Source: a phage. From it: a stretch of DNA of 64,000 nucleotides. The stretch is taken from sequence record PZ445440.1. The stretch is one strand, 5' to 3'. Both the position numbers and the translations under genes were made by a program. Of this stretch, positions 3,714 through 60,612 are shown piece by piece (positions within the stretch are counted from its first letter, which is position 1; each line of letters starts with the position of its first letter). The notes below the pieces were generated by a model. It had not been told where the DNA came from, ran no database searches, and worked only from the letters and a program-made list of their open reading frames with translations.

Positions 3714-3833
3714 AACAATCCTTAGGAGATATAAACAGATTCTGATTCAACAATACCTTTAACCGGATTAGACAGGCTAAGTTGGTAGTGCTCAGATTTA
3801 TGACCATTCTCGATAGTAATGAGATAGCTCTCA

Positions 3834-9277: not shown

Positions 9278-10456
9278 TTAGAAATATTTTTTGTATGAAT
9301 TGATTACATTTTGGTCTACATCATTATCAATTTGTGCGACAAGATAAGAACTGATTTCAACTTCCTGAGGAGCTGCTTGAACTAAATCGGAATTCAGATA
9401 TTCACGAATCCATGGAATAGGATGGCGAGTTGATACGTCTTTAAGTGGACAAGGTAGACCACAACTACGCATACGAGATACAGTAAGGTAATCCACAAAT
9501 TCGCTTAGAATTTTAACATTTAGCCCTGGCAGAGCACCATCTTTAAACAAGTGTTCAGCCCATTCTTTTTCTTGAGCATTAACTTCCATAAAGATATCAA
9601 CGGCTTCTTTCTCACATTCTTTTGTGATCTGAACCCACTCATCACCATCTTCACCGTCTTGTAAAGCACGAATAATATATTGAGTGCCTTTAAGGTGAAG
9701 CTGTTCATCACGTGCGATGAACTTCATAATCTTCGCATTACCTTCCATAATTTCCATATTTTTATGGAAGTTGAAAGTACAAGCAAAAGATACATAAAAA
9801 CGAATAGCTTCCAAGGCGTTAATAACATGCAGGCAGAGATAAAGAGATTTCATTAGCTCACGCTTCCAATATGTCTCATGCTCAATAGCATCTTCAATAA
9901 CGTCTTCGTCTGCATTAATTTCTTTTTGGTATTCGATATCAGCTTTAGCATTTTCCCAATAACGAGTTTTAACTAAGACATCGTCGTAATAACGTCCGAT
10001 AGATTCAGCACGTTTCATAATAGCTTCGTCTAATACAATTTCATCAAATACCTTCGATGGATCGGTATAAAGATTTCGCATGATATGAGTATATGAACGG
10101 GAGTGAATAGTTTCACTGAAAGTCCATGTAGCAACCCATGTATCTAATGAAGGGTCTGAAAGCAATGACATAAGTACCGCAGATGGTGCCCTGCCTTGGA
10201 TAGAATCTAATAATGATTGATACTTAAGGTTGTTGGTAAAGATATTCTGTTGGAACTGAGGAAGCTTATTGAACTGGGCTGAATCCAGCATCAGGTTTAC
10301 TTCTTCTGGGCGCCAAAAGAACGAGAGTTGCTTTTCGATAAGCTCTTCAAAAACTTTATGACGTTGGATATCGTAACGTGCAAGACCAAGACCAGAACCA
10401 AAGAACATCGGTTCATTCAAAACATCGACTTGTTGTGTATTAAAAACTGTACTCAT
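9278..10456 (-). CDS. nrdB: ribonucleotide reductase small subunit (class Ia)
   Basis: 392 aa; di-iron ligand pattern (E..H motifs) and synteny; uninterrupted ORF. Confidence 0.85.
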   Translation of the reverse strand: MSTVFNTQQVDVLNEPMFFGSGLGLARYDIQRHKVFEELIEKQLSFFWRPEEVNLMLDSAQFNKLPQFQQNIFTNNLKYQSLLDSIQGRAPSAVLMSLLSDPSLDTWVATWTFSETIHSRSYTHIMRNLYTDPSKVFDEIVLDEAIMKRAESIGRYYDDVLVKTRYWENAKADIEYQKEINADEDVIEDAIEHETYWKRELMKSLYLCLHVINALEAIRFYVSFACTFNFHKNMEIMEGNAKIMKFIARDEQLHLKGTQYIIRALQDGEDGDEWVQITKECEKEAVDIFMEVNAQEKEWAEHLFKDGALPGLNVKILSEFVDYLTVSRMRSCGLPCPLKDVSTRHPIPWIREYLNSDLVQAAPQEVEISSYLVAQIDNDVDQNVINSYKKYF

Positions 10457-10511
10457 TATATTTTCTCACTTAGTTATTAACTCATCCATGAGTAAATTAT
10501 AATCAAAAGAC

Positions 10512-12767
10512 TTAAAGCTTACAAGCAGAACAATCTTCAGCTTTAGGTGTTTCTAATTCATAGTCATCTGTACCTGACCCATCACGGGTGTTATGATAGT
10601 AGAGGTTTTTTCCGCCAAAGTACCAAAAGTAAAGCAGATCGTCAAGCATTACTGACATTGGCACTTTACCTTTCTCAAATACTGCAGGGTCATAGTAAGT
10701 ATTAGCAGAAGCAGATTGGCACACCCATTTCAACATGATAGCAACTTGGGTCAAATAAGGTTTATTACCTTTCTTAGCAAGTTTCCACGCATAGTCGTAA
10801 AGACTCATGTTATGTTCGATATTAGGAACAACCTGTCGGAAGTTGCCTTCTTTAGATTCTTTAATACTTACTGGACCGCGTGGGGGCTCAATCCCGTTTG
10901 TAGAGTTTGATACTTGACTGCTTGACTCACAAGGCATGAGTGCAGACAACGTTGAGTTACGAATTCCATGTTCTTTGAGTTCAGCTCGAAGTTCTTCCCA
11001 GTCGCAGACGTAGTTCGGGGCTGCGATTTGGTCAATCTTTTTATTGTACCAGTCGATAGGTAATTCGCCTCTAGACCATTTAGTGTCTGAATAATACTCG
11101 CAAGGTCCTTTTTCTTTGGCGAGTTTGATTGAAGCTTTGATAAGGCCATATTGCAATCTCTCAAACAATTCATGAGTCAAATCGTTAGCGTCTTCATATG
11201 AAGCAAAGTTAGAAGCTAACCATGCAGCATAGTTCGTCACACCGACACCGAGATTTCGACGCTTTTTAGCTTTTAAAGCTTCTGGAACCGGATAATCTTG
11301 ATAGTCTAACAGGTTATCAAGTGCACGTACTTGTACTTCAGCAAGTTCATTAATTTTATCTTGGTCTTGCCAATCAAATTTATCTAATACAAAAGCAGAT
11401 AATGTGCATAAACCGATTTCAGCATCAGGACCATTCACATCATTAGTTGGAATAGCGATTTCACAACATAAGTTACTCTGACGAATTGGAGCTTTTTCAC
11501 GAATAAATGGAGTGTAGTTATTCGTGTTATCAACAAACTGTGGATAAATTCGAGCAGTACCAGAACGTTCAGTCATGAACAATTCAAAGAGTTCTAGTGC
11601 TTTGATTCTTTTCTTTCTGATTGTTGGGTCTTTTTCAGCTTTCTCATAAAGCTCACGGAATTTATCTTGATCTTCAAAAAACGAGTAGTATAATTCGCCT
11701 GACATTTCGTGAGGGCTAAATAAAGTAATATAATCATTTTTACCAAGGCGTTCCATCATAAGGTCATTAATTTGAATTCCGTAGTCCATATGTCGAATAC
11801 GGTTTTCATCCACGCCTTTGTTATTTTTCAGAACTAATAGGTTCTCTACTTCTAAGTGCCACATCGGATAATACGCTGTAGCAGCACCACCACGAATACC
11901 ACCTTGAGAACAAGATTTTACTGCAGTTTGGAAATGTTTCCAGAATGGAATAACACCTGTATGTCGAACTTCACCCATACCGATCTTAGAACCTTCTGCA
12001 CGAAGCATGCCAACGTTGATACCGATACCAGCTCGTTTAGAAATATATTCAATAATTGACGCCGAAGTTTTGTTAATAGATTTTAACGAATCACCTGCTT
12101 CAATAACTACACAACTAGAGAACTGGCGAGTTGGAGTACGAGCACCTGCCATAATTGGGGTTGGCAATGAAACTTGATGAGTAGAAACAGCATCATAAAA
12201 ACGAATAATATGTTTCAAACGGTCATGAGTTTCGTCTTGATGTAAGGCCATACCAATAGCCATGATAGCAAACTGGGGAGTTTCATAAATCTTACCAGTT
12301 GTTTTATCTTTAACCAGGTATTTTTCTTTAAGCTGCATAGCACCAGCATAAGTCAGGTCAAAATCTCGCTCATGTTTAATCCGAGAATCAAGATAAATGA
12401 TTTCTTCTGCAGAATATCTAGACAACAACTCAGGATCGTATTTGCCTTCATTAACACAGTAAGAAATATGGTCGATAAAAGCAGGCGGTTCAAACTGCCC
12501 ATATACATCTTTACGAAGTGCAAACATTAATCCTTTAGCAGCAACATATTGATAGTCAGGTTCTTCGACAGAAATCGAGTTAGCTGCAACTTTAATACAA
12601 ATCTTCTGAATATCTTTGGTGCTCATCCCATCGACAAGATGGGTCTTAATTTCTTCGTACAATTCATATGGGTCGATTTGTGTTCCTTCACATTGCCAAG
12701 TTAAGACTTGAATAATTTTCTGTGCATCAAAATTTTGGGATACACCACTGCTCTTAGTTACTTGCAT
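10512..12767 (-). CDS. nrdA: ribonucleotide reductase large subunit (class Ia)
   Basis: 751 aa; ATP-cone N-terminus, catalytic NLCCEI-type motif (SNLCCEIAIP), C-terminal Cys pair. Confidence 0.9.
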   Translation of the reverse strand: MQVTKSSGVSQNFDAQKIIQVLTWQCEGTQIDPYELYEEIKTHLVDGMSTKDIQKICIKVAANSISVEEPDYQYVAAKGLMFALRKDVYGQFEPPAFIDHISYCVNEGKYDPELLSRYSAEEIIYLDSRIKHERDFDLTYAGAMQLKEKYLVKDKTTGKIYETPQFAIMAIGMALHQDETHDRLKHIIRFYDAVSTHQVSLPTPIMAGARTPTRQFSSCVVIEAGDSLKSINKTSASIIEYISKRAGIGINVGMLRAEGSKIGMGEVRHTGVIPFWKHFQTAVKSCSQGGIRGGAATAYYPMWHLEVENLLVLKNNKGVDENRIRHMDYGIQINDLMMERLGKNDYITLFSPHEMSGELYYSFFEDQDKFRELYEKAEKDPTIRKKRIKALELFELFMTERSGTARIYPQFVDNTNNYTPFIREKAPIRQSNLCCEIAIPTNDVNGPDAEIGLCTLSAFVLDKFDWQDQDKINELAEVQVRALDNLLDYQDYPVPEALKAKKRRNLGVGVTNYAAWLASNFASYEDANDLTHELFERLQYGLIKASIKLAKEKGPCEYYSDTKWSRGELPIDWYNKKIDQIAAPNYVCDWEELRAELKEHGIRNSTLSALMPCESSSQVSNSTNGIEPPRGPVSIKESKEGNFRQVVPNIEHNMSLYDYAWKLAKKGNKPYLTQVAIMLKWVCQSASANTYYDPAVFEKGKVPMSVMLDDLLYFWYFGGKNLYYHNTRDGSGTDDYELETPKAEDCSACKL

Positions 12768-12854
12768 ATATTCCTCAGTATAGGTTGATAGACATTACTC
12801 CAAACGGGATAGTATTTATCCCGTTAATTTATTATACACTTTTAAACTGAAGCG

Positions 12855-13109
12855 TTAATTATTCTTAGCAATAATTTCTTTGTATTCTTTAGGAGTCAAG
12901 ACTGTGATATCGAAATAAACCATTGGTTCTTTTTCCATACCGTAACCACCACAAAATTCACGATATTCATAAATTCGTTCATGTGAATAACAAACGAATC
13001 GTTCACCTTTAACTGTGATTTCACTATTTGGTGAAGGGATATCTAGTTCGGTAGGATTTTTCATTTCAAAAATTGTGGTGCCATATGAATTAATAAAACG
13101 TAAAATCAT
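12855..13109 (-). CDS. hypothetical protein (84 aa)
   Basis: ORF track; between nrdA and td. Confidence 0.45.
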   Translation of the reverse strand: MILRFINSYGTTIFEMKNPTELDIPSPNSEITVKGERFVCYSHERIYEYREFCGGYGMEKEPMVYFDITVLTPKEYKEIIAKNN

Positions 13110-13110
13110 T

Positions 13111-13971
13111 TTATACCGCCATTTTAGCTTTGATAACTGGATGTGATTCGTAATTTTTAAGAACGAAATCAGAATGTGTCATTGTTCCGGTAACCCAGTC
13201 CATTTGGATTTTTGTAGGCCAATTCTCAAAATTACTAGGCCAATTAATTTCAAGAGAACATAACTCTTTAGGTTCACGACGAAGAACTTCTTTGCATTGT
13301 TCTACATGATTGCTGTAGATATGCGTGTTGCCGCCCGAGAACACTAAATCACCCGGGATAAGATTACACATCTTCGCTACAATATGCGTCAAGGCAGCGT
13401 ACGAGGCAATGTTGAATGGCAGGCCCAAGAAAACATCTACACTGCGTTGATACCATTGTAAATCAAGATGCCCATTACGCACATTAAATTGATAGAACAT
13501 ATGACAAGGAGGAAGAGCCATTTGGTCAATTTCGGCTGGGTTCCATGCAGAAACTATTTGACGACGATCATTAGGAAGAGCTTTAATACGGTCGATAGTT
13601 TTGACCAATTGGTCTACACCACCAAAATCACGCCATTGCTTACCATAAATAGGACCAAGTTCACCACTATGATATCCAAGGTCTTTTGCCTGATTTTCAT
13701 AGTTGTCGTCCCAAATAGTTTTACCTTGAATAAGACTACCATGAGTACGAATACGCAAATCATTAACATTGGTAGAACCAGACATGAACCACAGTAACTC
13801 GGCAATACAAGCTTTCCATGCTAATTTCTTAGTTGTTACCGCAGGGAATCCTTTAGTCAGATCCCAACGTAATTTAGTTCCGAACAGGGCAATAGTGCCG
13901 GTACCTGTACGGTCGTCTGTTTCATAACCATTTTCTAGGATATCATTAATCAGGTATTGGTATTGTTTCAT
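13111..13971 (-). CDS. td: thymidylate synthase
   Basis: 286 aa; ThyA signature (PCHMFYQF, DVFLGLPFNIASYA); uninterrupted (no intron). Confidence 0.9.
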   Translation of the reverse strand: MKQYQYLINDILENGYETDDRTGTGTIALFGTKLRWDLTKGFPAVTTKKLAWKACIAELLWFMSGSTNVNDLRIRTHGSLIQGKTIWDDNYENQAKDLGYHSGELGPIYGKQWRDFGGVDQLVKTIDRIKALPNDRRQIVSAWNPAEIDQMALPPCHMFYQFNVRNGHLDLQWYQRSVDVFLGLPFNIASYAALTHIVAKMCNLIPGDLVFSGGNTHIYSNHVEQCKEVLRREPKELCSLEINWPSNFENWPTKIQMDWVTGTMTHSDFVLKNYESHPVIKAKMAV

Positions 13972-14555
13972 TTATATACGCTCTCAGTAATTTCGGTGAG
14001 TTCATCGATTCTGTAGTAATGAGATTCTACCATAGAACGTTGAAGCATAATATCCTGGACGAAATCTTTATCAAGTTGAACATCTGAATTAACACGACAT
14101 TTCTTAATGATTTTAGTCATCACAATTTCATCAGCATAAGGCAATGCTTGTTTAAGTAGAGCAGGACCGCCGATAACAGATACATCAACATGTTCAGTAG
14201 AAAGTTTAAACGGTACGTCGGTTGAAGGGCTAAACAAGTTAATTTCACCACCAGTCACCAAGGTAATAAATTCAGATTGGGTGATATAGAACCGTGCAAG
14301 TTCGTTGGTTTTAGTCCTAGGCAGTTTTCTGGCCATATCAGTGACAACCACATGAGTACGATCTGGGAGTAGACGAGGTAATGATGCAAATGTATTAGCA
14401 CCCATAACCATTACAGTGTTTTTAGTGCGAGCAACAAAGTTACTCATATCTTGTTTGATATGCTTCCATGGAAGTCCATCACCTAATCCAAAAGCATATT
14501 CCAGTTTATCATCAACTGTTTTAGATGGTGCGCATGCGAATACTAATTTAAGCAT
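13968..14555 (-). CDS. frd: dihydrofolate reductase
   Basis: Track ORF 13968..14639 trimmed to internal Met (MLKLVFAC...) giving 195 aa, as in T4 Frd (193 aa); DHFR motifs GLGDGLPW. Confidence 0.8.
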   Translation of the reverse strand: MLKLVFACAPSKTVDDKLEYAFGLGDGLPWKHIKQDMSNFVARTKNTVMVMGANTFASLPRLLPDRTHVVVTDMARKLPRTKTNELARFYITQSEFITLVTGGEINLFSPSTDVPFKLSTEHVDVSVIGGPALLKQALPYADEIVMTKIIKKCRVNSDVQLDKDFVQDIMLQRSMVESHYYRIDELTEITESVYK

Positions 14556-14796
14556 TTTTAAGTCCTTTAATAACTTTTTGGATTTGTGATTTAGAAGAAA
14601 CCAAATCAGTCTGGATTTGACAACCATCGGTTGGGTCAAATATTATAACACAAACGCGAGGTTTTGTTGTGTATCGCCCGGACAAATCAAATGCGTCACC
14701 AATGAATTCGGCCAAATCCGGATGGTCTAAATTAACTGAAGTATAAACTTCATATCCGACATCAGCGCCTTGAGAGTATTCAACAACAACATTCAT
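14548..14796 (-). CDS. hypothetical protein (82 aa)
   Basis: ORF track; stop overlaps frd start. Confidence 0.45.
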   Translation of the reverse strand: MNVVVEYSQGADVGYEVYTSVNLDHPDLAEFIGDAFDLSGRYTTKPRVCVIIFDPTDGCQIQTDLVSSKSQIQKVIKGLKNA

Positions 14797-14798
14797 AA

Positions 14799-15062
14799 TT
14801 ATTTCCTCAGATTTTTCTTAACAACTTTCCAATCAGCTTTAAACGATTCAACATCAGAGTGGTGAATCCAGAATCCTGCACTTTCACCATCTTCGTAGAG
14901 TGGACATCCATCACATTCTTCGTTCCAACCCATTTCACGTAAAGCTTCTTCAGCTTGTTCAAGGAGTTCAGCGTCTTTACCAGCGATGTTGAAGTACCAT
15001 TTACCTCTAACTTCAGAATCTTTGATGCTCTGGCGTTGCAATCTCATTTTATTCTCCTTCAC
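14799..15062 (-). CDS. hypothetical protein (87 aa)
   Basis: ORF track. Confidence 0.45.
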   Translation of the reverse strand: MKENKMRLQRQSIKDSEVRGKWYFNIAGKDAELLEQAEEALREMGWNEECDGCPLYEDGESAGFWIHHSDVESFKADWKVVKKNLRK

Positions 15063-15108
15063 TTTTATTTGATAGGGCTACTATAACATAGCCCTATCTT
15101 GTTGTACA

Positions 15109-15501
15109 CTACTTTTTAAAAGTTTTTTGCAAAAGTTTGATGATTTCGTCGACGTTGGTTTCATCTACGATACAATGGATTTTTGTTACACCTAAAGTTA
15201 TACCTTCGTTAGTAGGTTGAGGCTTTACTAAATCTACCTCAGTAAAGTATTTGAACTCGTCAGGATAAATCTCAAAATAAGTTTCAATTTCACCACCGGC
15301 AGAACATACAGTACCATCTTCCATAGTTACACTTACTACGTTTGACGTATCGCTATCATAATCAGGTTCCATTCCGTTTACAACAAAACTGGGCCCGTGG
15401 AGTTCAATCAATTTTAACATCTTAGCGTTATTGTGTGGTGCTTCTTGAACAAAGTCGTCTTTAAATAAAGGGTTAATGATATAAGATTTTCCAATTTCCA
15501 T
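15109..15501 (-). CDS. hypothetical protein (130 aa)
   Basis: ORF track; early promoter upstream. Confidence 0.5.
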   Translation of the reverse strand: MEIGKSYIINPLFKDDFVQEAPHNNAKMLKLIELHGPSFVVNGMEPDYDSDTSNVVSVTMEDGTVCSAGGEIETYFEIYPDEFKYFTEVDLVKPQPTNEGITLGVTKIHCIVDETNVDEIIKLLQKTFKK

Positions 15502-15591
15502 TTTGATTTCCTCATGTTGTTGATAGGTTCTATACTAACACATCTAGGGAAGAAGTAAACAACTTTTTCGACAATTTACAGATACTCAAAA

Positions 15592-15609
15592 GGGAGACCG
15601 AAGTCTCCC
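15592..15609 (-). terminator. stem-loop GGGAGAC-UUCG-GUCUCCC + U-run downstream of gene 32
   Basis: Same 18-nt hairpin as at 582; follows gene 32 stop. Confidence 0.55.
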
Positions 15610-15615
15610 AATTTA

Positions 15616-16518
15616 TTATAGACCAGCTAACAGGTCATCGAGGTCGCCATCATCAGAGGATGAGGTAGAGCTCATGAAGTCATCTTCAGTTTTTGCAGAA
15701 CTAAAGGCTTCCATGTCTTTATCAAAATCGTCAAGGTCAGAAGCAACTTTATCTGCAACAGAAGCTGCTGCGGCTGCTGCACCACCAAGAGCGGCAGTAC
15801 CAAGAACCTTAGCGAAAGATTCATTTAATTTTTCAAAGGATTTGAACTGGTCTTTAGCCGTCAAAGTAGTAAGGTCTACCATCTGGTCATATAGTTCTTT
15901 CTGGAATGCTTCGTCATTAATACGAGGAATTTCAGATTGACCCAAGAATTTAGATTCGTCATAGTTGCTAAAACCGGAAACCTGCTTAGCTTTCAGAACG
16001 AAGTTAGCACCTTCAAATGGGCAAGTAACATCAACTGGAGTTTCACCCATTTCGGTATCAACTGCAATCATTGCATTGATTTTGTCCCAAATCTTTTTAC
16101 CGAAACGATATTTAAATACTTTACCTTCGTTATCTGGAGCTTGAGGGTCTTTAACAACCAGAATATTGGCCCAATAAGAGGTTTTACGTTTCAGTTGAGA
16201 ATATTCAGCTTTGTTGGTATTGTACAGGTCATTTTTACTAATGTACTGACATACAGGACAAGAGTCGTAATCACCATGTGTAGAAGAGCAATTTTCAATA
16301 TACCATTTACCATTTTTCTTGAAACCGTGGTTAACAAGAATTGCAAATGGTAGTGCATCATCAGTTTTTGCTGGCAAGAAACGAATTACCGCTTGACCAT
16401 TACCGGATGCATCTAGCTTCAGCTTCCATTCGCCTTTATCTTCTGAAGAGAAACCTTTGTTACCATTCAGTTTAGCCATTTGAGCAGCGAGGTCAGCAGT
16501 AGATTTACGTTTAAACAT
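15616..16518 (-). CDS. 32: single-stranded DNA-binding protein gp32
   Basis: 300 aa; near-identity to recalled T4 gp32 over the core (zinc-site [14 protein letters not shown]), acidic C-terminal tail. Confidence 0.95.
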
Positions 16519-49207: not shown

Positions 49208-49816
49208 TCAGTAACTGACAATAGACAGATTCCAGATTGTATAACTTCCATCCTGAATAATAGAATCTACACGCAGTGTAGTCCCTATAGGGAGCATAAA
49301 TTCACATTCGTCAGATATAAGTCTAGCATTAGACCGTCTTGTCGCTTCAGGGAAAGCTCCATTGAACTCACAAGATGGCGCAGCCAGAATCATGTTAAGC
49401 ATATGTTCACGGAAGTTGAAAGCAAATGGTGCATCTTTGATGCAGAACATATTAAATGTTCCGTAAAAATTATACGAAGCAAAGTTACGTGCTACACCGA
49501 ACACTGGACTGAAGCTCATTACTCTGTCAAATTTAATAATACTACCAATGCCTTTATCATCGAGTGTGGCCATAGTTTTCTTAGAGATTCCACGATACAT
49601 TGTCTCAGGAACAGAAGACGTCCAATTTCTACGAACGATTGAACTTAAATCTTGTTGGATGCTATCAGGCTTGTTTTCCATACACTGCCACAGTACACTT
49701 TGTTCAATGTCGCTGAATTGCTCATCGATTTTGTACTGAAGCATATCTTGATAATCTGGACATTGGGCACGACGAACCATTTCTTCAATTTCACACTCGT
49801 TATACGGCATAAACAT
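49208..49816 (-). CDS. modB: ADP-ribosyltransferase (ModB-like, downstream paralog)
   Basis: 202 aa; R-S-E ART-type motifs (YRG, SFS, ECEF); paralogous to adjacent ORF; A/B assignment by order only. Confidence 0.5.
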   Translation of the reverse strand: MFMPYNECEIEEMVRRAQCPDYQDMLQYKIDEQFSDIEQSVLWQCMENKPDSIQQDLSSIVRRNWTSSVPETMYRGISKKTMATLDDKGIGSIIKFDRVMSFSPVFGVARNFASYNFYGTFNMFCIKDAPFAFNFREHMLNMILAAPSCEFNGAFPEATRRSNARLISDECEFMLPIGTTLRVDSIIQDGSYTIWNLSIVSY

Positions 49817-49873: not shown

Positions 49874-50455
49874 CTAAAAATTCAACATTTTCAAATGAAT
49901 GATTTTGTATAATCGAGATAAAGGGTCATATTCTAAGTCTTCAATTTCCACAATCTCAAATCTAGAGATACCTGAGACCATGTACTCTTGTTCAGATTCA
50001 ATCATATCTAGGACGTCAACACGCGTTTCTTCCATAACATGCTTAGGGTTCTTTCCGGCGAGTACAATGTTAACCATGTTTTGGTAGTAATCAAAAATGA
50101 ATGGAGCATTCCTGAGACTAAGAATAGTGTACGTCTGATATTCCCATCTCCCAGAGAATTGACGAGCTGTACTGAAATCAGTTGTGAACGATGTTACTCG
50201 TCCAGGAGACCAATGGCATCCAACAGAAAGAAGGGAAAGACGTTCTACTTCTTCTGGAGTTACACCACGGTAGAGTTCTACTGGTACTGTAGAAGTCATA
50301 TGCTTACGAACAAGATGGTCTAATTCATAGTGGAAATCCGGGTCTTCCTTAGAATCGGTGCAAGCCCAGAGAATGTTTTGTTCTTGGCGGGTGAATTTGC
50401 TATCAATCAGATTTGTTAGGTATTCGCGTTCTTGAAGTTCAGATTGACATGTCAT
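49874..50455 (-). CDS. modA: ADP-ribosyltransferase (ModA-like, upstream paralog)
   Basis: 193 aa; motifs LYRG, TSFT, EQEYMV; A/B assignment by order only. Confidence 0.5.
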   Translation of the reverse strand: MTCQSELQEREYLTNLIDSKFTRQEQNILWACTDSKEDPDFHYELDHLVRKHMTSTVPVELYRGVTPEEVERLSLLSVGCHWSPGRVTSFTTDFSTARQFSGRWEYQTYTILSLRNAPFIFDYYQNMVNIVLAGKNPKHVMEETRVDVLDMIESEQEYMVSGISRFEIVEIEDLEYDPLSRLYKIIHLKMLNF

Positions 50456-52933: not shown

Positions 52934-53131
52934 ATGTTTAAACTTCCATCGTTAATCAACGCTATTAAAGGCAATAAAAAGAAAACTGCTATCGCTGCAA
53001 TAGTTGTAGGTGGCATTATTTCATGGAACTTCGGGATTGCACCATTGTTAGTTGCCCATGGTATTATAGTTCCTTCTGTTCCGTTGGATACTGTGGTTGA
53101 TTTGGCCTTTGCTATTATAGGGCTTGTTTAA
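52934..53131 (+). CDS. small hydrophobic protein (65 aa) on opposite strand
   Basis: ORF track; strong AAGGAG RBS 7 nt upstream; two predicted hydrophobic helices; convergent with gene 61. Confidence 0.4.
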   Translation: MFKLPSLINAIKGNKKKTAIAAIVVGGIISWNFGIAPLLVAHGIIVPSVPLDTVVDLAFAIIGLV

Positions 53132-54150
53132 ATCTTCGAATAACGAGATAATCTCATTTTAGCATGCAACCCACTTGAAATATTCTGTTTCATATATTCT
53201 AAAATTTCTTGTGGTGTTGCATTTTCTTTCATTACCATATCATTCACATCCTTTGAACTCCATGGAGCTCTATCCCAGAACATAACACGTTCGCCTGCAT
53301 CTACTAATCGCTTCATACGAGCTATAGTATCCGGATGCCTAGGTTCATTATCCATCACCCATACCCGACGTTCTTTAAATGGTACCACATCTAAATCTAT
53401 TGAGCCGCCTGTAATAGCGATTGCATTGGGTATGAATAAACTATCAATAGGGCCTTCCATTACCCAGACGTCTCCTTCCTTAACACGTTCAACACCGTAA
53501 ATTTTTGTTGCCGACTCAAACGCTTTAATAGTGATATATTTCTGAGGAGCATCTTTACGAAGTGCACGTCCTTGGAATGACTCGGCCTTACCATCTTTAT
53601 TAAAAATAGGAATCACTAAACGTGGTTCGGGAATCTCTTTCTTATACGTACCAGGTTGAATCTTGTTGACCAATTTAGGCCATTCTAATGTGAACCATAG
53701 TCTATTCCATGATTCTTTAGGAATGCATCTAGACTTAACATATTTCACAATAGGATGCTCTTCAGGCAGCTTGTCCAGACGAGAACAAGACGGCAAAGAA
53801 TTTATAGTCTTTTTCTCCGGTTCTGGTTTGTGTTCAGGAACCTTTTCAATCTTTGGTTCCATTCTAGCTTTTTCTTTACGAACTTCCATTAGATACTCGC
53901 GATAAAGCTCTTCATCATACTCTTTTAAGTATCCGGAAATTGTATTATGGTATTGACAGTTATAGCAATGTACATTACCAGGAGTACCGCCATAATACCA
54001 TCCGCGAGCTTTCATTGCATCTGTCTGGGAGTCGCCACAAACCGGACATCGAAATGTTAATTTAAATGTGCTTGAATTATTGATTTGTCTAAAACGAGGT
54101 AGGTGAGAAAACGCACGATAAGCAAATTCATTATCTATCCATTCAGCCAT
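53128..54150 (-). CDS. 61: DNA primase gp61
   Basis: 340 aa; zinc ribbon CPVCGDS...CYNC and TOPRIM core; near-identical blocks to recalled T4 gp61. Confidence 0.9.
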   Translation of the reverse strand: MAEWIDNEFAYRAFSHLPRFRQINNSSTFKLTFRCPVCGDSQTDAMKARGWYYGGTPGNVHCYNCQYHNTISGYLKEYDEELYREYLMEVRKEKARMEPKIEKVPEHKPEPEKKTINSLPSCSRLDKLPEEHPIVKYVKSRCIPKESWNRLWFTLEWPKLVNKIQPGTYKKEIPEPRLVIPIFNKDGKAESFQGRALRKDAPQKYITIKAFESATKIYGVERVKEGDVWVMEGPIDSLFIPNAIAITGGSIDLDVVPFKERRVWVMDNEPRHPDTIARMKRLVDAGERVMFWDRAPWSSKDVNDMVMKENATPQEILEYMKQNISSGLHAKMRLSRYSKI

Positions 54151-54189
54151 AGTATTCTCCAGAGGCCTTAAATTAATAAGGCCATCTTA

Positions 54190-54684
54190 TCACAACTTAT
54201 TAATATTTACTTTAATTCGCTTTCTTTTCTTGGAAGGAATTTGTTCGGGACCTTTATTTACAATTGCACCTGTAGTAGTTCCTGATGCAATAGCTTGAGG
54301 ATTGCCGTCTGAATCACCAGCAACCATATCCTCAAATAAAGGGAGTTCTTTAAATATTTCTTTCTGTTGTTCTTCAGTAATGTTATAGCGTGAAGCTACA
54401 GCACTCCAAGCAGACATCATTGATGCCATTCCATTAAGACCTGGAACAGTGTTCATCATTCGCTTCATTGAACGAACTGAAGCATGAAAAGGTGTATACG
54501 CCGCTTTCTCTTCAGGAGTGGAAGGACGTTTAAGAACACTTCCACGTTCATCGATGATTTTGGCTTCATATGCTTTCCATTCGGTAAAAGGTTTTTGCAT
54601 TAGTCGAATAAACTTATATGCGTAAACAGAATCTATTGCAGTGTTAATAATACCCATAGGTACCTCCTGAGTATATTTAATCAA
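54190..54684 (-). CDS. hypothetical protein (164 aa), 61.1-position
   Basis: ORF track. Confidence 0.45.
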   Translation of the reverse strand: MIKYTQEVPMGIINTAIDSVYAYKFIRLMQKPFTEWKAYEAKIIDERGSVLKRPSTPEEKAAYTPFHASVRSMKRMMNTVPGLNGMASMMSAWSAVASRYNITEEQQKEIFKELPLFEDMVAGDSDGNPQAIASGTTTGAIVNKGPEQIPSKKRKRIKVNINKL

Positions 54685-54874
54685 TTACAAAGATTGCTTT
54701 GTCACCGTTTATATCTGTGACTTCATATGTAGTACCTTCATACTGTGGAATATTCCAAATTACACCGTCATTAGCTTTTACGCTAATATGGCATTGGTGT
54801 TTTGAAACAACTTCATAATCTTCAAAACTTGTAAAAACACTAATTTTAGAACCAGTGCAAATTGCAGTAGTCAT
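54677..54874 (-). CDS. hypothetical protein (65 aa)
   Basis: ORF track. Confidence 0.4.
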   Translation of the reverse strand: MTTAICTGSKISVFTSFEDYEVVSKHQCHISVKANDGVIWNIPQYEGTTYEVTDINGDKAIFVID

Positions 54875-54875
54875 T

Positions 54876-55535
54876 TTAACCTCGATTCATAAATGCATTA
54901 AATATTTGGTCATCAACAGAAATTTCTAATTCGACTTCAATTGCTTCGGCCTTTTCTTCAGGTGGTAATTCGTATCCACACACTACAATTTTTTCATCGA
55001 TATCAAAATATACAGAAGCAATACGATTAATGTTATTTTCAGTTAAGTCCAAATCAACATCAACATCTTTTTGGCCTACACTTAGAGGATAACTAATACG
55101 GGTTATTTTATTATCTTTAACAAAGAGTCCACCAACATACTCTGTACTGCGTTTGAAGTTTACACGTTTCCGAATTGAAAGATATGATACATCTTTACCG
55201 TGAGCTCGGCTCATAGGACATAATGAATAGCTAGAATAAGAGATGTCAAATCCCACACCTTCAATATGAGCCAACGTGTCATGATTAAACCAATTATAAT
55301 CATATGCCAAATCCATTATATTGTAATATGTGAAAGGCACAGGATTAACATCATATGTTGTACCTTTAAAATCTGCCCAGGCAACGATTTCGTTATCTTT
55401 AACAATTACAAAAATTACACCGAGATGGTATCCGTTATTATTTTCATTCGGCGTTATATTATAACATTGTGCATTAGGAAATTTACCATATTTAAATGGT
55501 GCATTTTTGTGCATATAATAAATCATATTATTCAC
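54876..55535 (-). CDS. hypothetical protein (219 aa)
   Basis: ORF track. Confidence 0.5.
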   Translation of the reverse strand: MNNMIYYMHKNAPFKYGKFPNAQCYNITPNENNNGYHLGVIFVIVKDNEIVAWADFKGTTYDVNPVPFTYYNIMDLAYDYNWFNHDTLAHIEGVGFDISYSSYSLCPMSRAHGKDVSYLSIRKRVNFKRSTEYVGGLFVKDNKITRISYPLSVGQKDVDVDLDLTENNINRIASVYFDIDEKIVVCGYELPPEEKAEAIEVELEISVDDQIFNAFMNRG

Positions 55536-55821
55536 CTGTGATTTCGGTTACGATATCTTTGTTATCGAAATTAGGGTCACAATACAAAACATAGTTGTAT
55601 TGCATGATACCACCAGACTTAAGTTGTTCAACAACTTTATTAACCATATTAGGACGGTCTCGTTTAGTGATGTTCATGATATCAGAGAAGATTTGTTGTT
55701 CAACATCTTCTTGATTTGCAGTCATTGACCACTCACAGAGGTCTTTATCATAACCTGCCGTAACTGGAGCCGGTGCACATGATACTGCAAGTAAGATTGC
55801 TGCCAATGATAACTTTTTCAT
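55528..55821 (-). CDS. sp: periplasmic Spackle-like protein (superinfection exclusion, gp5 lysozyme inhibitor)
   Basis: 97 aa with cleavable signal peptide, same length as T4 Sp; conserved YDKDLCEWSM and GG.MQYNYVLYCD motifs as recalled; between 61 and 41. Confidence 0.65.
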   Translation of the reverse strand: MKKLSLAAILLAVSCAPAPVTAGYDKDLCEWSMTANQEDVEQQIFSDIMNITKRDRPNMVNKVVEQLKSGGIMQYNYVLYCDPNFDNKDIVTEITGE

Positions 55822-55884
55822 TTTAACTCCTTAGTTGATTTGATAGGACTACTATACTATAGTCCATCTATAATGTAAACAAAT

Positions 55885-56133
55885 TTATTCTTTTTCGCGA
55901 ATAATAATTACTTGTTGAGGCTGCTGAGCCGATTTCTTTTCGGCAACGATAGACCAAATTAAAGTTCCAATCCAACCAACCATCGTCCAGTTAAAGAGTA
56001 AAGATACAAAGAAGATTGCTGTTGTGCTTTTTGTGCCACGAATAAGTGCGATTACCCAAGGCAACATGTAAATGATGATTGAACCAATACCTGCGATTAA
56101 AACTGCTACTGAACTAGCTACGAATAATTCCAT
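55885..56133 (-). CDS. small membrane protein (82 aa, two TM helices)
   Basis: ORF track; hydrophobic segments. Confidence 0.45.
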   Translation of the reverse strand: MELFVASSVAVLIAGIGSIIIYMLPWVIALIRGTKSTTAIFFVSLLFNWTMVGWIGTLIWSIVAEKKSAQQPQQVIIIREKE

Positions 56134-56194
56134 GTTAATTTCCTCTTGATTTGTTATGTTTATAGTATCTTATTTTAACTTTGGTGTAAACCAA

Positions 56195-56563
56195 TTAATT
56201 AAATTTGTTTAAACGTTCAATACACTGCACGTAGTTATTCGCGATTTGTTTCTGGGTAGGCTCTTTACCAGTTGTTTCAACATAGCGAATGAATGCGATT
56301 TCAGTAGCCTGTAAGCAATGTTCTTTAACGCGCTGTTCTTTTGACATAGCTACAGTATCAGAATCACGATATCGTTGAGCATGAGCATCAGCTTGAATCA
56401 TTCGATTACCTACAGTAACCGGGTCTTCCACTTCAACTTTAGGTTGGTCATACTGTTTAACATTAGGATTGTAAATCAATTGGCCAACGTTATTAGGGAT
56501 AAAGCCATGGGCACCACATCCGGTTAATCCAAATACCATTGCTAAAGCGATTAATTTTTTCAT
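56195..56563 (-). CDS. putative lipoprotein (122 aa)
   Basis: Signal peptide with lipobox LTGC. Confidence 0.5.
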   Translation of the reverse strand: MKKLIALAMVFGLTGCGAHGFIPNNVGQLIYNPNVKQYDQPKVEVEDPVTVGNRMIQADAHAQRYRDSDTVAMSKEQRVKEHCLQATEIAFIRYVETTGKEPTQKQIANNYVQCIERLNKFN

Positions 56564-56591
56564 TTCAATTTCCTCTGTAGTTGATATAAAG

Positions 56592-56621
56592 ATAGTAACA
56601 CAGTATGTAGTGCTTGTAAAC
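56592..56621 (-). promoter_or_regulatory. T4-type early promoter
   Basis: Minus strand GTTTACA-N17-TACTAT upstream of lipoprotein gene. Confidence 0.5.
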
Positions 56622-56632
56622 AGTTTTTAAAA

Positions 56633-56821
56633 TTATCGAAAATCTGCTTCGAAAACTTTCTCGTCATTAACAAATGCTTTAACTAATGCGTTGTTCACTT
56701 CAGCAAGTTGTACCGCAACCCACTCGATTTCTTCGCGATCTCCTGATAACATGATATCTTTAGTGAACATCTCACCGCTTTTAAACCAACCGATAAAAGT
56801 AACTTTAGTTAATTTGCTCAT
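56633..56821 (-). CDS. dmd: Dmd-like antitoxin (inhibitor of host RnlA/LsoA RNase toxins)
   Basis: 62 aa (T4 Dmd 60 aa); position 61.5; motifs V.F.GWFK...MFTK and AEVN.ALVKAF as recalled. Confidence 0.55.
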   Translation of the reverse strand: MSKLTKVTFIGWFKSGEMFTKDIMLSGDREEIEWVAVQLAEVNNALVKAFVNDEKVFEADFR

Positions 56822-57135
56822 ATTTCCTCACAGAACGCCCATTCAGCATGATAAACTGTAGCGCCTTTAGTAACATTCATTTGAACTACATCTACCGGAG
56901 AAATTACTCGATAGAGACGTGGTTCACCTCCATAAGAGCGTGCCGCTCGTCCTGCATAAATCTTTGCTAAACCTATATCTTCAGTAAAGAATACACGATC
57001 CAAGTTTTTCTTACGTCCTGTTTCAGACAGAACTCCTGTTTCTTCAGGAGGACAAAGCATGTTTTCGATGTTAGCTGAACTACTTGAACCGTGATAAAAA
57101 ATCTTAAATTCTGCTTTACAATCGATGGTTTTCAT
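56818..57135 (-). CDS. hypothetical protein (105 aa)
   Basis: ORF track. Confidence 0.45.
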   Translation of the reverse strand: MKTIDCKAEFKIFYHGSSSSANIENMLCPPEETGVLSETGRKKNLDRVFFTEDIGLAKIYAGRAARSYGGEPRLYRVISPVDVVQMNVTKGATVYHAEWAFCEEI

Positions 57136-57190
57136 TTTGTTCTCCAGTAGTTGATAGGTCTATAATAACACAACTACTGGAGAAGTAAAC

Positions 57191-57565
57191 TTAAAAATGT
57201 AATTTAGATACATCTGCGTTGATTTCGGTTTGGTTTGCGTCATATGCAATTAAACGAACCGCTTTAGATGGGTCATTCAATGCATAGAAATGATGGAACA
57301 TTGCTCGAACGATATCACCATTTACGAGTTCTACCTGGATAGGAGAACCTTTTTCGAGTTGGAAATGTTCATAAGCTTTGATGGTTCGTAGATAATCAAG
57401 TTTTTGATTTCCAGCTCCAACGATTTGTACGATACGTTTGCCCATGTTTTCCATACGAGATACAATAGTTTTAGGAGCAAGAATAACGTAGGTTGCCAGC
57501 GGAGAAACTACTTCAACAGTTGTGTTTTCGGTGATTGCAGTAAAAATTGCTTGAGACATATTCAT
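57191..57565 (-). CDS. hypothetical protein (124 aa)
   Basis: ORF track. Confidence 0.45.
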   Translation of the reverse strand: MNMSQAIFTAITENTTVEVVSPLATYVILAPKTIVSRMENMGKRIVQIVGAGNQKLDYLRTIKAYEHFQLEKGSPIQVELVNGDIVRAMFHHFYALNDPSKAVRLIAYDANQTEINADVSKLHF

Positions 57566-57630
57566 AATGTTTTCCTCTTGGTTGGTGTAAGTACATCATA
57601 TCATGCCTAGAGGAAGATGTAAACCCCGAA

Positions 57631-57648
57631 AGGAGACCGAAGTCTCCT
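57631..57648 (-). terminator. stem-loop AGGAGAC-UUCG-GUCUCCU after gene 41
   Basis: Same hairpin family as 582/15592; directly follows gene 41 stop. Confidence 0.5.
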
Positions 57649-57653
57649 TTTTA

Positions 57654-59096
57654 TTAAAATTTTAACTCATTGGCTAAGCTATCTAGGTCAGCACGTGTTG
57701 CTTTGGCTTTACCTACGCGTTCCGTACGATTCACCTCTGCCTGACGCATCTGAGCACCTGCGTTTTCATTTACTGTGTTAGGTGTGTTCATGCCTTCTTG
57801 CTCAATCTCAATCCATTTCTGGTTGCCTTTACGTACACCCATCAGGAATTTATTCCACTTATTCTTATCACCATATCGTGATTTGATTTGTTTGATAAGT
57901 TGTTGTTCAGCTTGTGCAAGTTCTTCGGTTTCAATTACAGCCAACATGAAATCTGCCGTTGCTGGTAAACCTGCTGATTCTGCGATATCACTCATGTTCA
58001 TGTCTGAAGCATCCCATGCTGCACGTCCTACTTGAGCTGCAGTCCATAGAACTGTTTCAGATTCTACTGCTAATGCACGAAGTTCTTCTGCGATAGCTTT
58101 AACTAATGTGTAGCTATTTTCAGTGTAAACTCTGATACGACAAGACCCGCAAATACCTAAGTAATCAACCATGATTACAGATGGCACAAAGTTCTTCTTA
58201 AGTTTTAACTCATTAAGCAATGCACGAAATGTATTAGCATTAGCTCCACCAGTAGGATACTGTTTAACTACTAAACGTCCTAATGTGGATTTTGAACGCC
58301 ATTTTTCCATCTTGGCTTTATATTCAGCATAAGATACGTTACCATCATCAATATCATCAAGTGATACGTCAAGCATGTTTGCATCTATACGCTTAGCACA
58401 AACTTCTTCAGCCATTTCCATGGAAATATAAAGAACATTATGACCTGTTTGAAGATAATCTGCAGCAAGTGAACAAAGGCCTAAAGATTTACCAACGTTA
58501 ACACCTGCCATTAAAACATTCAGTGTACCGGTTTCAGCACCACCTTTAGTGATTTTATTCAGAATGTTTAATTTGAACGGGACCTTACGTGCTTTGTTCA
58601 GATAAGAAAGCCAGCGTGCTTCATAGTCTTCCATCCAGTCATGCCCAACATAACTATCAAACGAAATTGAAAGTGCTTGACGCATAATATCAGGAATAGC
58701 TCCTACGTCAGGCATTTTCTTGTTACGTTGTTCTGGAGGTAGTTCAGCATTAGACTGAATCTCAATGATTTTGGATGTAGCATTATACATCGCTTTTTGC
58801 TGGACATATTTCTCAGTTTCTTTAACCAACCATTCGTGGTCTTCAGGAGTATCAGCCAATTTTTCAATTAGGTCTGAAGTTCCTTTATATTCGGCTTCAG
58901 TTAAAGAACTGTTATCTAAAGCCACCTTTAATGCATTGATAGATGGCATTGCATTATATTCGTTAACGTGGCTCTTTATAATTTTAAAGACATTTTTTGC
59001 CGGTCCACGCTCAAAATACTCAGAATCCATATAAGGCCAGACCTTAGAAAAATAAGCCTGGTCGTATACTAGATGAGACAAAATAATTTCTACCAC
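57654..59096 (-). CDS. 41: replicative DNA helicase gp41 (DnaB-like)
   Basis: 480 aa; Walker A GVNVGKS; RecA-like helicase core; synteny with 61. Confidence 0.9.
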   Translation of the reverse strand: MVEIILSHLVYDQAYFSKVWPYMDSEYFERGPAKNVFKIIKSHVNEYNAMPSINALKVALDNSSLTEAEYKGTSDLIEKLADTPEDHEWLVKETEKYVQQKAMYNATSKIIEIQSNAELPPEQRNKKMPDVGAIPDIMRQALSISFDSYVGHDWMEDYEARWLSYLNKARKVPFKLNILNKITKGGAETGTLNVLMAGVNVGKSLGLCSLAADYLQTGHNVLYISMEMAEEVCAKRIDANMLDVSLDDIDDGNVSYAEYKAKMEKWRSKSTLGRLVVKQYPTGGANANTFRALLNELKLKKNFVPSVIMVDYLGICGSCRIRVYTENSYTLVKAIAEELRALAVESETVLWTAAQVGRAAWDASDMNMSDIAESAGLPATADFMLAVIETEELAQAEQQLIKQIKSRYGDKNKWNKFLMGVRKGNQKWIEIEQEGMNTPNTVNENAGAQMRQAEVNRTERVGKAKATRADLDSLANELKF

Positions 59097-59105
59097 GATA
59101 ACTCC

Positions 59106-59468
59106 TTAAAAGAATTTAAATTTTTTCTTGGTCCGTTCATTAAAAGCTTGTTGTACTTGCATTGTAACACATTTTTCAACATGCGGTGCAAGTTCTGCTT
59201 TTCTGTCCTGGTCAAGAACTGCAAAGTCCATTACGATTTTACCATCAACCCAGTCTAGTTTTGTAATATAGACTATATGATGGGAACCGTCTTCAAGTGT
59301 AATCAGAATCTCTTGAATGACATTTTCCATTGCTGAACGGACAATTTTAAGAGATTCATTAAACACTCGTTCTTTGCGAATGTCTTCCCCTTCCGAAGAA
59401 GGGGATTCATCAACGATTTCTAGATTTAAATCATCGAGATTATTCATCGAAATCTTCCATTTCGTCAA
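59106..59468 (-). CDS. 40: gp40-like protein (by position and size)
   Basis: 120 aa between 41 and uvsX. Confidence 0.5.
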   Translation of the reverse strand: MTKWKISMNNLDDLNLEIVDESPSSEGEDIRKERVFNESLKIVRSAMENVIQEILITLEDGSHHIVYITKLDWVDGKIVMDFAVLDQDRKAELAPHVEKCVTMQVQQAFNERTKKKFKFF

Positions 59469-60612
59469 GGTCGTTTTCTATATCTGCTGCAGATGGAGCA
59501 TCAGAAGTTTTAACTGGAACCTTAGTTGTTGCTTTGCAATTAATAAGGTCGTTAACAGCGTCATCAACTTCTTTAATAGAAGAGATAGCACCTAGTTTAT
59601 ATTTGGTTTCAATTGCATCTCGGAAAGGTTTGTGTTTAAACAACGGTCCCCAGAATTCTACACAATCAGTAGCTTTAGCACGCCACGATTTCTCTTCACG
59701 AATCATTTCACCTGTTTCTTCGTCAAGGAATTCACGAGCATACCAACCAGCTTTAGGCTTAACTACAAAACCAATTTCAGTTGCCATTTCTAACAAGCCA
59801 CTGAATGGATCAATACCGCCATCAAAATTAACCGTGATTGGGAAAGTAGATTTCTCTTTAACTGTACGAGATTTTTCTGCTTTCAACGTGAAGTCATAAC
59901 CGGTCAATTCTGTACCTTCTTTAACCTGACGTTTAGAGATAAAAAATACCGTGTTGGCAGAGTAAAGAATACCTGTACCACCACCCATAATCTCTTTAGG
60001 ATATAGTCCGCCGATTTCCATTGCTGTATGGTTGATTGCAACACACGGAATATCTTTAATAGTCAGATAAGGAGTCACAATGCGGAACAGAGATTTAAGT
60101 GCCTTAGCACGAGACATATCACCTACAACTTTTTCGTTCAACGCATCTTCGGTTTCTTTCTTAGATGCAGTATTACCGATTGAATCGATAAAGATAATAA
60201 CTTTATCACCGCGTTCAATAGCGTCAAGCTGATTAGTCATATCGACTTTAAGTTGTTCGACAGACTGAATTGGTGTATGAACTACGCGGTCTAAATCAAC
60301 ACCCATCGAACGGAAGTAAGATTCTGAAGCACCGAATTCTGAGTCATAAAACAAACAGATCGCATCTTTATATTTCTTCATATACGCTGCGACCATAGTT
60401 AGTCCAAACAATGTTTTAAAATGTTTAGAAGGTGCAGCAAAAATAGTCAAGCCTGATTGCAATCCTGCATTCAGAGCACCACCTAGTGCAATATTCAACA
60501 TCGGAATACGAGTAGGGACTTCATCACGATTATTAAACAGCTTAGACTTAGTCAAGTCTGCAGTCATTTTAGAAGTAGAAGCTTTAATCAGACGAGATTT
60601 TAAATCAGACAT
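59440..60612 (-). CDS. uvsX: UvsX recombinase (RecA-like)
   Basis: 390 aa; RecA fold Walker A-like (AAPSKHFKT), acidic C-terminus; T4 UvsX 391 aa. Confidence 0.9.
   Translation of the reverse strand: MSDLKSRLIKASTSKMTADLTKSKLFNNRDEVPTRIPMLNIALGGALNAGLQSGLTIFAAPSKHFKTLFGLTMVAAYMKKYKDAICLFYDSEFGASESYFRSMGVDLDRVVHTPIQSVEQLKVDMTNQLDAIERGDKVIIFIDSIGNTASKKETEDALNEKVVGDMSRAKALKSLFRIVTPYLTIKDIPCVAINHTAMEIGGLYPKEIMGGGTGILYSANTVFFISKRQVKEGTELTGYDFTLKAEKSRTVKEKSTFPITVNFDGGIDPFSGLLEMATEIGFVVKPKAGWYAREFLDEETGEMIREEKSWRAKATDCVEFWGPLFKHKPFRDAIETKYKLGAISSIKEVDDAVNDLINCKATTKVPVKTSDAPSAADIENDLDEMEDFDE

Follow-up and report, generated by a model that had tools for sequence, protein, structure and literature searches.

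What is encoded by the run of small genes that separates the primase gene from the helicase gene in a T-even type phage, and does it hold functions beyond those already assigned there? The question is raised by positions 54190–57565 of a 64,000-nucleotide stretch of phage DNA (sequence record PZ445440.1; the whole stretch is referred to as the window), for which an initial annotation, drawn up from the sequence alone, had proposed a cluster of small envelope-targeted proteins. The interval is very probably the T-even accessory region between genes 41 and 61 in its RB69-type form, made up of a superinfection-exclusion set, factors directed against toxin–antitoxin (TA) systems and genes to which no role has been given. 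As such the locus is textbook T-even biology, already annotated in the public record, to which the initial annotation as written adds little. It does offer three leads: a conserved miniature ADP-ribosyltransferase-like protein, here called ORF B (ORF, open reading frame) and homologous to the rifampin-modifying enzyme Arr; a fixed imm.1–imm gene pair; and natural variation in tifA and in the anti-DarT factor AdfA. The ADP-ribosyltransferase (ART) fold of ORF B and the missing tifA had both been overlooked.

Identity and gene content of the interval

The interval matches Escherichia phage ChristianSchoenbein (Bas46, MZ501056.1; Straboviridae, Mosigvirus) with 100% identity, and this phage is closely related to RB69. 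According to the ORF list it is occupied by nine consecutive, non-overlapping ORFs on the minus strand, which are, following gene 41, ORF A, ORF B, dmd, imm.1, imm, sp, adfA, ORF H and the gene for gp61.1. They are flanked by the genes for the gp41 helicase (57654–59096) and the gp61 primase (53128–54150). The initial annotation had counted nine ORFs between primase and helicase, five of them without a description, and this count agrees with the list. All nine are genuine genes rather than chance ORFs, because each product matches a PHROG family (9/9; E values from 2.8e-131 to 8.8e-29), codon changes relative to RB69 are mostly synonymous (synonymous to non-synonymous, 10:1 in ORF B, 11:2 in imm.1, 3:0 in ORF H and 6:3 in adfA), and early promoters are present. 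The starts that the ORF list gives for adfA and 61.1 are probably too long. No match was found in PADLOC for any of the nine proteins, nor in Rfam within positions 53000–59500.

The corresponding interval of RB69, from ORF041c to 61.1, is alike gene for gene, with 95–100% protein identity; it differs in retaining tifA between dmd and imm.1, and its 61.1 is split by a frameshift in the reference sequence. The T4 region shares the flanking genes 41 and 61, the strand, the early transcription, and orthologues of dmd, sp, adfA and the C-terminal part of 61.1. Its order, however, is 41–dmd–tifA–sp–adfA–61.1–61, with imm.1–imm situated between genes 42 and 43, whereas here two genes (ORFs A and B) have been added after gene 41, the imm.1–imm pair is inserted, a 65-residue ORF H and a full-length 61.1 are present, and tifA is missing. 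The region has been named a possible 'anti-TA island', comprising dmd, tifA and adfA, and its remaining genes have been termed 'attractive anti-toxin candidates' (Srikant et al. 2022, PMC9391042). The description of the locus in the initial annotation as a hotspot for superinfection-exclusion and anti-toxin functions is therefore sound, and the idea had been in print since 2022 as the 'anti-TA island' (PMC9391042), with sp lying there in T4.

The proposal that the cluster is envelope-targeted stands for three of the nine products. Signals for export or membrane insertion were found by hydropathy analysis only in Imm.1, Imm and Sp, which are encoded next to each other and correspond to a predicted lipoprotein, a membrane protein and a periplasmic protein. 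The other six have neither a signal peptide nor a hydrophobic segment (maximum 19-residue hydropathy ≤1.43), and for them the proposal fails. A reading in which the interval encodes mainly small envelope-targeted proteins, and its unassigned ORFs are new exclusion factors of the membrane or periplasm, can draw on this adjacency of imm.1, imm and sp, yet it is very unlikely: besides the six products without such signals, Dmd, AdfA and ORF B are cytoplasmic by known or inferred function, and ORF B would need cytoplasmic NAD+. Of the ORFs that had been left unassigned, one encodes AdfA (PF23813), which already has a name, and another the widely conserved gp61.1; ORF B with its ART fold is an added lead. 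The RB69-type accessory region would combine a contiguous imm.1–imm–sp exclusion set with cytoplasmic counter-defence factors and with genes that have no assigned role.

ORF B, a predicted minimal ADP-ribosyltransferase

ORF B (56818–57135, minus strand; RB69ORF040c, PHROG 2110) encodes a protein of 105 residues which is predicted to be a minimal ART-fold member of an Arr-like family. In GenBank it is given as an 81-residue protein (bas46_0135, 56818–57060) that lacks the invariant YHGS strand with its NAD-binding His-Gly; the 105-residue start is backed by a GGAG ribosome site, the RB69 annotation and a full-length PHROG match. An AlphaFold model built from 36 sequences is confident (predicted local distance difference test score, pLDDT, 84.6; predicted template modelling score, pTM, 0.77). 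It displays the hallmarks of the ART fold superfamily, a split β-sheet with the NAD-binding His on strand 1, and the lower-ranked matches in a fold comparison are diphtheria toxin, OspC3, PARPs and DarT.

The relationship to Arr emerges from profile comparison, and is significant only with a broad profile of the family. A narrow profile of 36 sequences gave a suggestive probability of 39% against Arr-3, while a profile built from 99 family domains gave 96.3% (hhalign; E 1.8e-9 over 75 columns); the Arr-3 query was checked and is 100% identical to annotated plasmid genes. When 1.84 billion representative proteins were searched with the ORF B profile, 221 relatives were recovered, many of them domains within proteins of 270–3,900 residues, and more distant multidomain relatives exceed the gathering threshold of Pfam Arr-ms at the very segment matched by the ORF B profile (26.9–31.5 bits against a cutoff of 25). 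Among the 36 homologues, Pfam Arr (PF12120) gives weak matches in three (best E 0.026), and ART-PolyVal a single weak match (E 0.27). Direct searches of the PDB with the single sequence and with the 36-sequence profile found nothing. ORF B is thus homologous to Arr, with a predicted ART fold.

ORF B is nevertheless not an Arr orthologue, nor is it a Tpt1. The family signature reads YHG(S/T) ... LPP..TG..SE.GRKKNLD.VFFT.D..A.IYAGRA....GG.P, in which H15 of ORF B aligns with the Arr His and the invariant F49 with the Arr Tyr. The protein ends about 40 residues before Arr-3 and so lacks the C-terminal region that binds rifamycin in Arr. In further contrast to Arr (PF12120), it has a family-specific SE-x-GRKKN loop, remains below the Pfam threshold, and belongs to the early genes of a phage, not to resistance genes. 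In a 2022 survey of viral NAD+ and ADP-ribose systems, the only ARTs of the Arr family to be mentioned are those of actinobacterial and Sinorhizobium phages (PMC9503650).

Homologues of ORF B are widespread, occurring in 610 phage records that are distributed, by organism name, among Escherichia (216), Klebsiella (116), Acinetobacter (68), Aeromonas (62) and others. Those sampled in the 36-sequence alignment come from T4-like phages with a wide range of hosts, Escherichia, Proteus, Acinetobacter and Vibrio among them, are at least 58% identical and share 25 invariant residues; a few annotators call such proteins 'putative ADP-ribosyl transferase'. Klebsiella Kanagawavirus and Acinetobacter Lazarusvirus likewise have a homologue in the gene 41–61 interval; in Aeromonas phiAS4 it is located elsewhere. 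In T4, none was found in the 21 kb examined (9.5–30.5 kb).

The ORF B-like domain is also found fused to other domains, namely Phage_portal_2 with a 2H/Acb1-like phosphoesterase, PhageMin_Tail, ART-PolyVal, NUDIX, GNAT with Toprim, PcfJ and DUF7178. Individual examples among the relatives (P0172, P0146, P0141 and P0165) are fusions to a lambda-type portal with a 2H/Acb1-like phosphoesterase, to a 3,924-residue minor-tail (tape-measure-like) protein, to ART-PolyVal and to NUDIX. Such architectures are typical of virion-delivered polyvalent effectors (PMC5512222), and suggest that in other phages the domain is delivered with the virion. Compared with the ART domains described in polyvalent proteins (Iyer et al. 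2017, PMC5512222), ORF B-like domains occur in proteins of 1,000–3,900 residues beside ART-PolyVal, NUDIX, GNAT, Toprim, portal and tail domains; ORF B itself, unlike these, is a separate early gene and not a virion-delivered domain, and it belongs to a different ART family from ART-PolyVal.

Proposed activity of ORF B

If ORF B is an enzyme, it would bind NAD+ by means of Y60 and two strands, VFFT and the invariant YHG(S/T), and would pass ADP-ribose on to a conserved target in the host or in nucleic acid, which it would recognise through the invariant basic loop SE-x-GRKKN together with R63. It would then act as an early take-over or counter-defence effector, a role with which the portal, tail and polyvalent fusions found elsewhere are in keeping. 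That ORF B is catalytically active we regard as rather probable, and activity is not assured because no catalytic acidic residue is found across the family. Only tentatively do we go further and suggest that the active enzyme serves counter-defence or take-over and has a specific target in the host or in nucleic acid. With similar caution we propose the wider reading in which ORF B and its more than 600 homologues in T4-like phages are active, NAD+-dependent transferases of a distinct Arr-related family that mark with ADP-ribose either a conserved host defence component or a phosphate of a nucleic acid or nucleotide, and in which Imm.1 is a third, lipid-anchored component of T-even exclusion; this is possible rather than probable.

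Several observations count against the explanation given here. ORF B reaches no Pfam threshold, and does not match Arr (PF12120) even at E ≤10. Phe (F49) replaces the Tyr of the Arr H-Y-D triad, the assignment of the Asp being uncertain, and the acidic residue at the usual catalytic position is not conserved family-wide; E103 is invariant only in the subfamily of stand-alone phage proteins. Genomic context gives no target, since there is no constant neighbour across genera: a constant partner gene was sought beside ORF B, but different genes adjoin it in Kanagawavirus, Lazarusvirus, Tulanevirus and a Vibrio phage, none of them with informative domains. Nor does ORF B fill an obvious gap as a replacement for ModA and ModB in RB69-type phages, an idea set aside on finding two Mod-like genes in the window. 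These lie on the minus strand at approximately 49217–49810 and 49943–50398, adjoin srd, and encode proteins 32–38% identical to T4 ModB; beside them, ORF B is an additional ART. As to Imm.1, its AlphaFold2 model, built from three sequences, is poor (pLDDT 61.9 overall, with helices 75–120 at about 90), and no PDB entry matches it in Foldseek with an E value below 4. In the papers searched, no functional study was found for ORF B (RB69ORF040c and accessions), imm.1 or phage Arr-like ARTs, and no experiment on ORF A, ORF H or gp61.1.

The loss of the canonical Tyr and the lack of a family-wide Glu or Asp are what would be expected if ORF B were a catalytically dead ART-fold binder, serving as a sponge for NAD+ or ADP-ribose derivatives or as a decoy for an ART-related defence protein of the host or for its antitoxin. 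Its very small size (105 residues) fits such a role, as does the fact that the neighbours Dmd and AdfA act by stoichiometric binding (PMC9391042, PMC11257639). Against it stands the pattern of conservation: the His-Gly-Ser/Thr strand together with E38, R41, K43, N44, D53, Y60 and R63 is invariant or nearly so in highly divergent members, polyvalent proteins included, as is typical of an active site. Moreover, Tpt1 and Arr are active despite having no catalytic Glu. A dead binder is for these reasons the less attractive proposition and on balance unlikely.

A second alternative places ORF B alongside Dmd as an RNA repair enzyme of the Tpt1/KptA type, which would take 2'-phosphates off RNAs that RNase toxins of the host have cleaved. 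The Tpt1 N-terminal RNA lobe carries three of the four catalytic residues (Arg-His-Arg-Arg), and this RNA-binding lobe is absent from ORF B, which has the NAD+ lobe only. There is likewise no significant profile match, the 99-domain profile giving a probability of 7.8% against E. coli KptA and of 2.9% in another run, and the coupling of ORF B to dmd is confined to Mosigvirus-type genomes. We therefore consider repair of this type highly improbable.

Among phage ARTs, Alt, ModA and ModB provide precedents, as does AcrIF11, an anti-CRISPR protein that ADP-ribosylates Cas8f, stems from a different phage group, and for which no sequence relationship to ORF B was sought or found. Given these precedents, ORF B, which has homologues in Klebsiella and Aeromonas phages too, is an inexpensive and promising candidate for anti-defence screening. 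If it is an active transferase, then such early enzymes of counter-defence or take-over would be widespread, and other phages would deliver the activity by way of portal, tail and polyvalent domains.

Early expression of the island

The window was searched for the T4-type early promoter pattern GTTTAC-N17/18-TANNAT. Seventeen exact matches were found, all on the minus strand (17/17), where 0.53 would be expected by chance; the whole 64 kb is apparently a single leftward block of early and middle transcription. Four of the 17 belong to the interval and lie directly upstream of ORF A (57595–57624, minus strand, GTTTACA...TATGAT), ORF B (57162–57190, minus strand), imm.1 (56592–56621, minus strand) and imm (56162–56191, minus strand). 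A near match, TTTACA-17-TATAGT, precedes sp (55851–55880, minus strand) as the fifth, so that five promoters fall within 1.8 kb. Every gene of the island has a GGAG or GAGG ribosome site. The initial annotation had named a lack of expression signals as an objection to these ORFs; both early promoters and ribosome sites are present. The island would thus be transcribed early as a series of short units, every one of them driven by a sigma-70 early promoter of its own and provided with a strong ribosome site, and its products would be made within minutes of infection.

The helicase transcript may be parted from the island by a hairpin located just after the gene 41 stop codon (57629–57650, minus strand). 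This inverted repeat forms a 9-bp stem with a UUCG loop (−12.8 kcal/mol, z −3.3), and is probably a terminator or an RNA-stabilising element.

A second structure, a stem-loop of about 14 bp (57135–57189, minus strand), stands before ORF B. Its 19-nucleotide inverted-repeat arms are 89% complementary, and on RNA folding it reaches −21.5 kcal/mol (z −4.96), a stability equalled by none of 200 shuffled sequences. The promoter regions of the other four genes, in contrast, are not clearly more stable than shuffled sequence. Within the stem-loop, the −10 element of the ORF B promoter occupies the loop, and the ORF B Shine-Dalgarno sequence is part of the 3' arm. A transcript started at this internal promoter would lack the 5' arm and leave the ribosome site free, whereas in RNA reading through from ORF A the site would be masked, so that only read-through transcripts would be silenced. 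The same logic operates in known T4 genes that are controlled by hairpins. Downstream, the ORF B stop codon overlaps the dmd start (ATGA), and the two genes are therefore translationally coupled. At the far end of the interval, a weak hairpin (54164–54183, minus strand; GGCCUUA-UUAAUU-UAAGGCC, z −1.7) lies between the 61.1 stop codon and the ribosome site of gene 61.

Anti-toxin genes and the absence of tifA

The gene following ORF B is dmd (56633–56821, minus strand), syntenic with dmd of T4 and RB69 downstream of gene 41. Its 62-residue product matches Pfam PF17587 with 70.2 bits (cutoff 27; E 1.9e-19) and is 54% identical to T4 Dmd, which confirms it as the antitoxin-like protein that the initial annotation had suspected. 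It is accordingly identified as Dmd, and is predicted from its sequence to bind and neutralise the RnlA and LsoA toxins. As a cytoplasmic counter-defence factor it would inhibit these RNases by direct binding.

The anti-DarT factor AdfA (gp61.2) is encoded at 54876–55526 on the minus strand, the likely start being the ATG at 55526. The 216-residue protein covers the whole of profile PF23813 (positions 1–211 of 211; 397 bits, E 1.5e-119) and is 66% identical to T4 gp61.2. Neutralisation of E. coli DarT1 calls for a His at position 164 in RB69 numbering. This residue is an Arg here (NNINRIASVY) and a His in T4, and the R allele of Bas46 AdfA has been reported as non-neutralising for DarT1 (PMC11257639). 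AdfA would act by binding DarT, with the R164 allele present here being one reported inactive against DarT1.

The third member of the published island, the anti-ToxN gene tifA (gp61.4), would have been lost in Bas46. The spacer between dmd and imm.1 (56564–56632, minus strand; 69 nucleotides) is the tifA site in RB69 and T4 and contains the imm.1 early promoter; alignment shows that tifA is cleanly absent from it and that the downstream promoter is retained. No tifA-like sequence was found in the whole window, the best tblastn match having an E value of 0.5. RB69-type tifA DNA is present in 69 phage records, compared with 135–153 records that hold this Mosigvirus interval, and tifA is therefore polymorphic within Mosigvirus. 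The presence or absence of tifA in roughly half of Mosigvirus genomes, together with the R164 and H164 alleles of AdfA, provides natural near-isogenic phage pairs that could be used for tests of sensitivity to ToxIN and DarTG.

The superinfection-exclusion set

One member of this set is Sp, or Spackle (55528–55821, minus strand; 97 residues), a periplasmic inhibitor of the gp5 tail lysozyme which acts with Imm in superinfection exclusion (PMC7677548). Matching T4_Spackle (PF25676) with 145 bits (cutoff 27; E 1.1e-42) and 66% identical to T4 Sp, it bears out the earlier suggestion of a Spackle-like protein with a signal peptide. The doubt that the sp and dmd assignments might fail on alignment is removed for both. 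The N-terminus has a signal-like stretch of 22 residues, which begins with MKK and goes on to a hydrophobic core and VTA|G, and C29 and C81 are conserved, these being the disulfide pair of T4 Spackle (PMC7677548). Exported to the periplasm, Sp would block the gp5 lysozyme of later-arriving phages.

Imm (55885–56133, minus strand) is the membrane superinfection-immunity protein (PF14373; 56.9 bits, cutoff 27.9, E 1.8e-15), 64% identical to T4 Imm over its full length. Its 82 residues are strongly hydrophobic in the N-terminal part, and from the membrane it would block DNA entry by later-arriving phages. It is also the protein which had been noted as having two transmembrane segments: such a protein exists, though it is not a new one.

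The lipoprotein with an LTGC lipobox, likewise noted earlier, does exist and is Imm.1 (56195–56563, minus strand; 122 residues), a member of DUF5481 (PF17578; 37.4 bits, cutoff 27) with 32% identity to T4 Imm.1. The lipobox occupies residues 13–16 (LTG|C16), conforming to the rule [LVI][ASTVI][GAS]C, and Imm.1 is on this basis a predicted bacterial-type lipoprotein; that of T4 Imm.1 is LAGC, while homologue P0273 has no Cys there. In the protein encoded here the Cys is followed by a residue other than Asp, which under the +2 rule of E. coli suggests sorting to the outer membrane. In the model, a disordered tether of about 30 residues with a conserved YNPNVKxY motif leads to a helical C-terminal domain. 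C83 and C114 are conserved, and their position in helices 2 and 3 of this domain is compatible with a periplasmic disulfide.

A fused Imm.1 and Imm query matched 811 phage records, and in 659 of these the two genes are neighbours in an unchanged order. The location of the pair differs, T4 having it between genes 42 and 43 and Bas46 in the 41–61 interval, and imm.1–imm is a fixed two-gene module whose linkage has been retained despite relocation. Imm.1 may, we infer with modest confidence, assist Imm in exclusion, and would then be a lipid-anchored periplasmic partner. Its strict linkage to imm suggests a possible, overlooked lipoprotein component in T4 'immunity'.

ORF A, ORF H and gp61.1

ORF A (57191–57565, minus strand; RB69ORF041c, PHROG 10668) encodes a cytoplasmic protein of 124 residues that falls into only two clusters among 5.8 billion proteins. 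It is found in 135 phage records, all at least 95% identical and from Mosigvirus except two at about 36% identity. Pfam, PADLOC and the PDB yielded no match of note. A possible relationship to phosphoheptose isomerase, from a phmmer match (E 0.086) of 78 residues to the N-terminal part of 3trj_A (SIS fold), was taken as chance because ORF A has no similarity to RB69's own isomerase-like protein and the NCBIfam matches were weak and inconsistent.

ORF H (54677–54874, minus strand; RB69ORF033c, PHROG 3249) encodes an acidic, cytoplasmic protein of 65 residues, present in 263 phage records that include a 47-kb Shigella phage at 40% identity. For neither ORF H nor gp61.1 was there a sequence match in the PDB.

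ORFs A and H could be evolutionary passengers of a hyperplastic region, functionless in the laboratory or in nature. ORF A is confined to one genus, and the region gains and loses genes, as with tifA and the imm module. On the other side, ORF A is preceded by an early promoter and a ribosome site of its own, and another phage encodes a homologue at 36% identity; homologues of ORF H extend to one at 40% identity in an unrelated 47-kb phage, and the ratio of synonymous to non-synonymous changes in ORF H is 3:0. The passenger explanation is accordingly quite unlikely.

The long form of gp61.1 (54190–54657, minus strand; PHROG 2086 and 1823) most probably starts at the ATG at 54657 with AGGAGG upstream and then has 155 residues, with a basic C-terminal tail. 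It occurs in 1471 phage records, among them some from phages of Acinetobacter, Aeromonas and Pelagibacter, and the intact protein of Bas46 is the form conserved in distant T4-like phages; T4 gp61.1 (54 residues) matches only its C-terminal third. In the RB69 reference the frameshift divides gp61.1 into ORF032c and 61.1 (RB69 3318–3784 in the compared sequence).

Neighbouring genes

On the plus strand at 52934–53131, convergent with the 3' end of the primase gene and abutting it, there is a 65-residue hydrophobic ORF with apparently two transmembrane segments (bas46_0126, RB69ORF029w); an ORF with a transmembrane domain occupies the same place in a Klebsiella Kanagawavirus. Beyond the right end of the window in Bas46, RB69 has a sugar-nucleotide cluster downstream of uvsX (approximately 10048–16001 in the compared sequence). 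It sits where T4 has β-glucosyltransferase, and its genes are annotated as phosphoheptose isomerase-like, guanylyltransferase-like and arabinose-5-phosphate isomerase.

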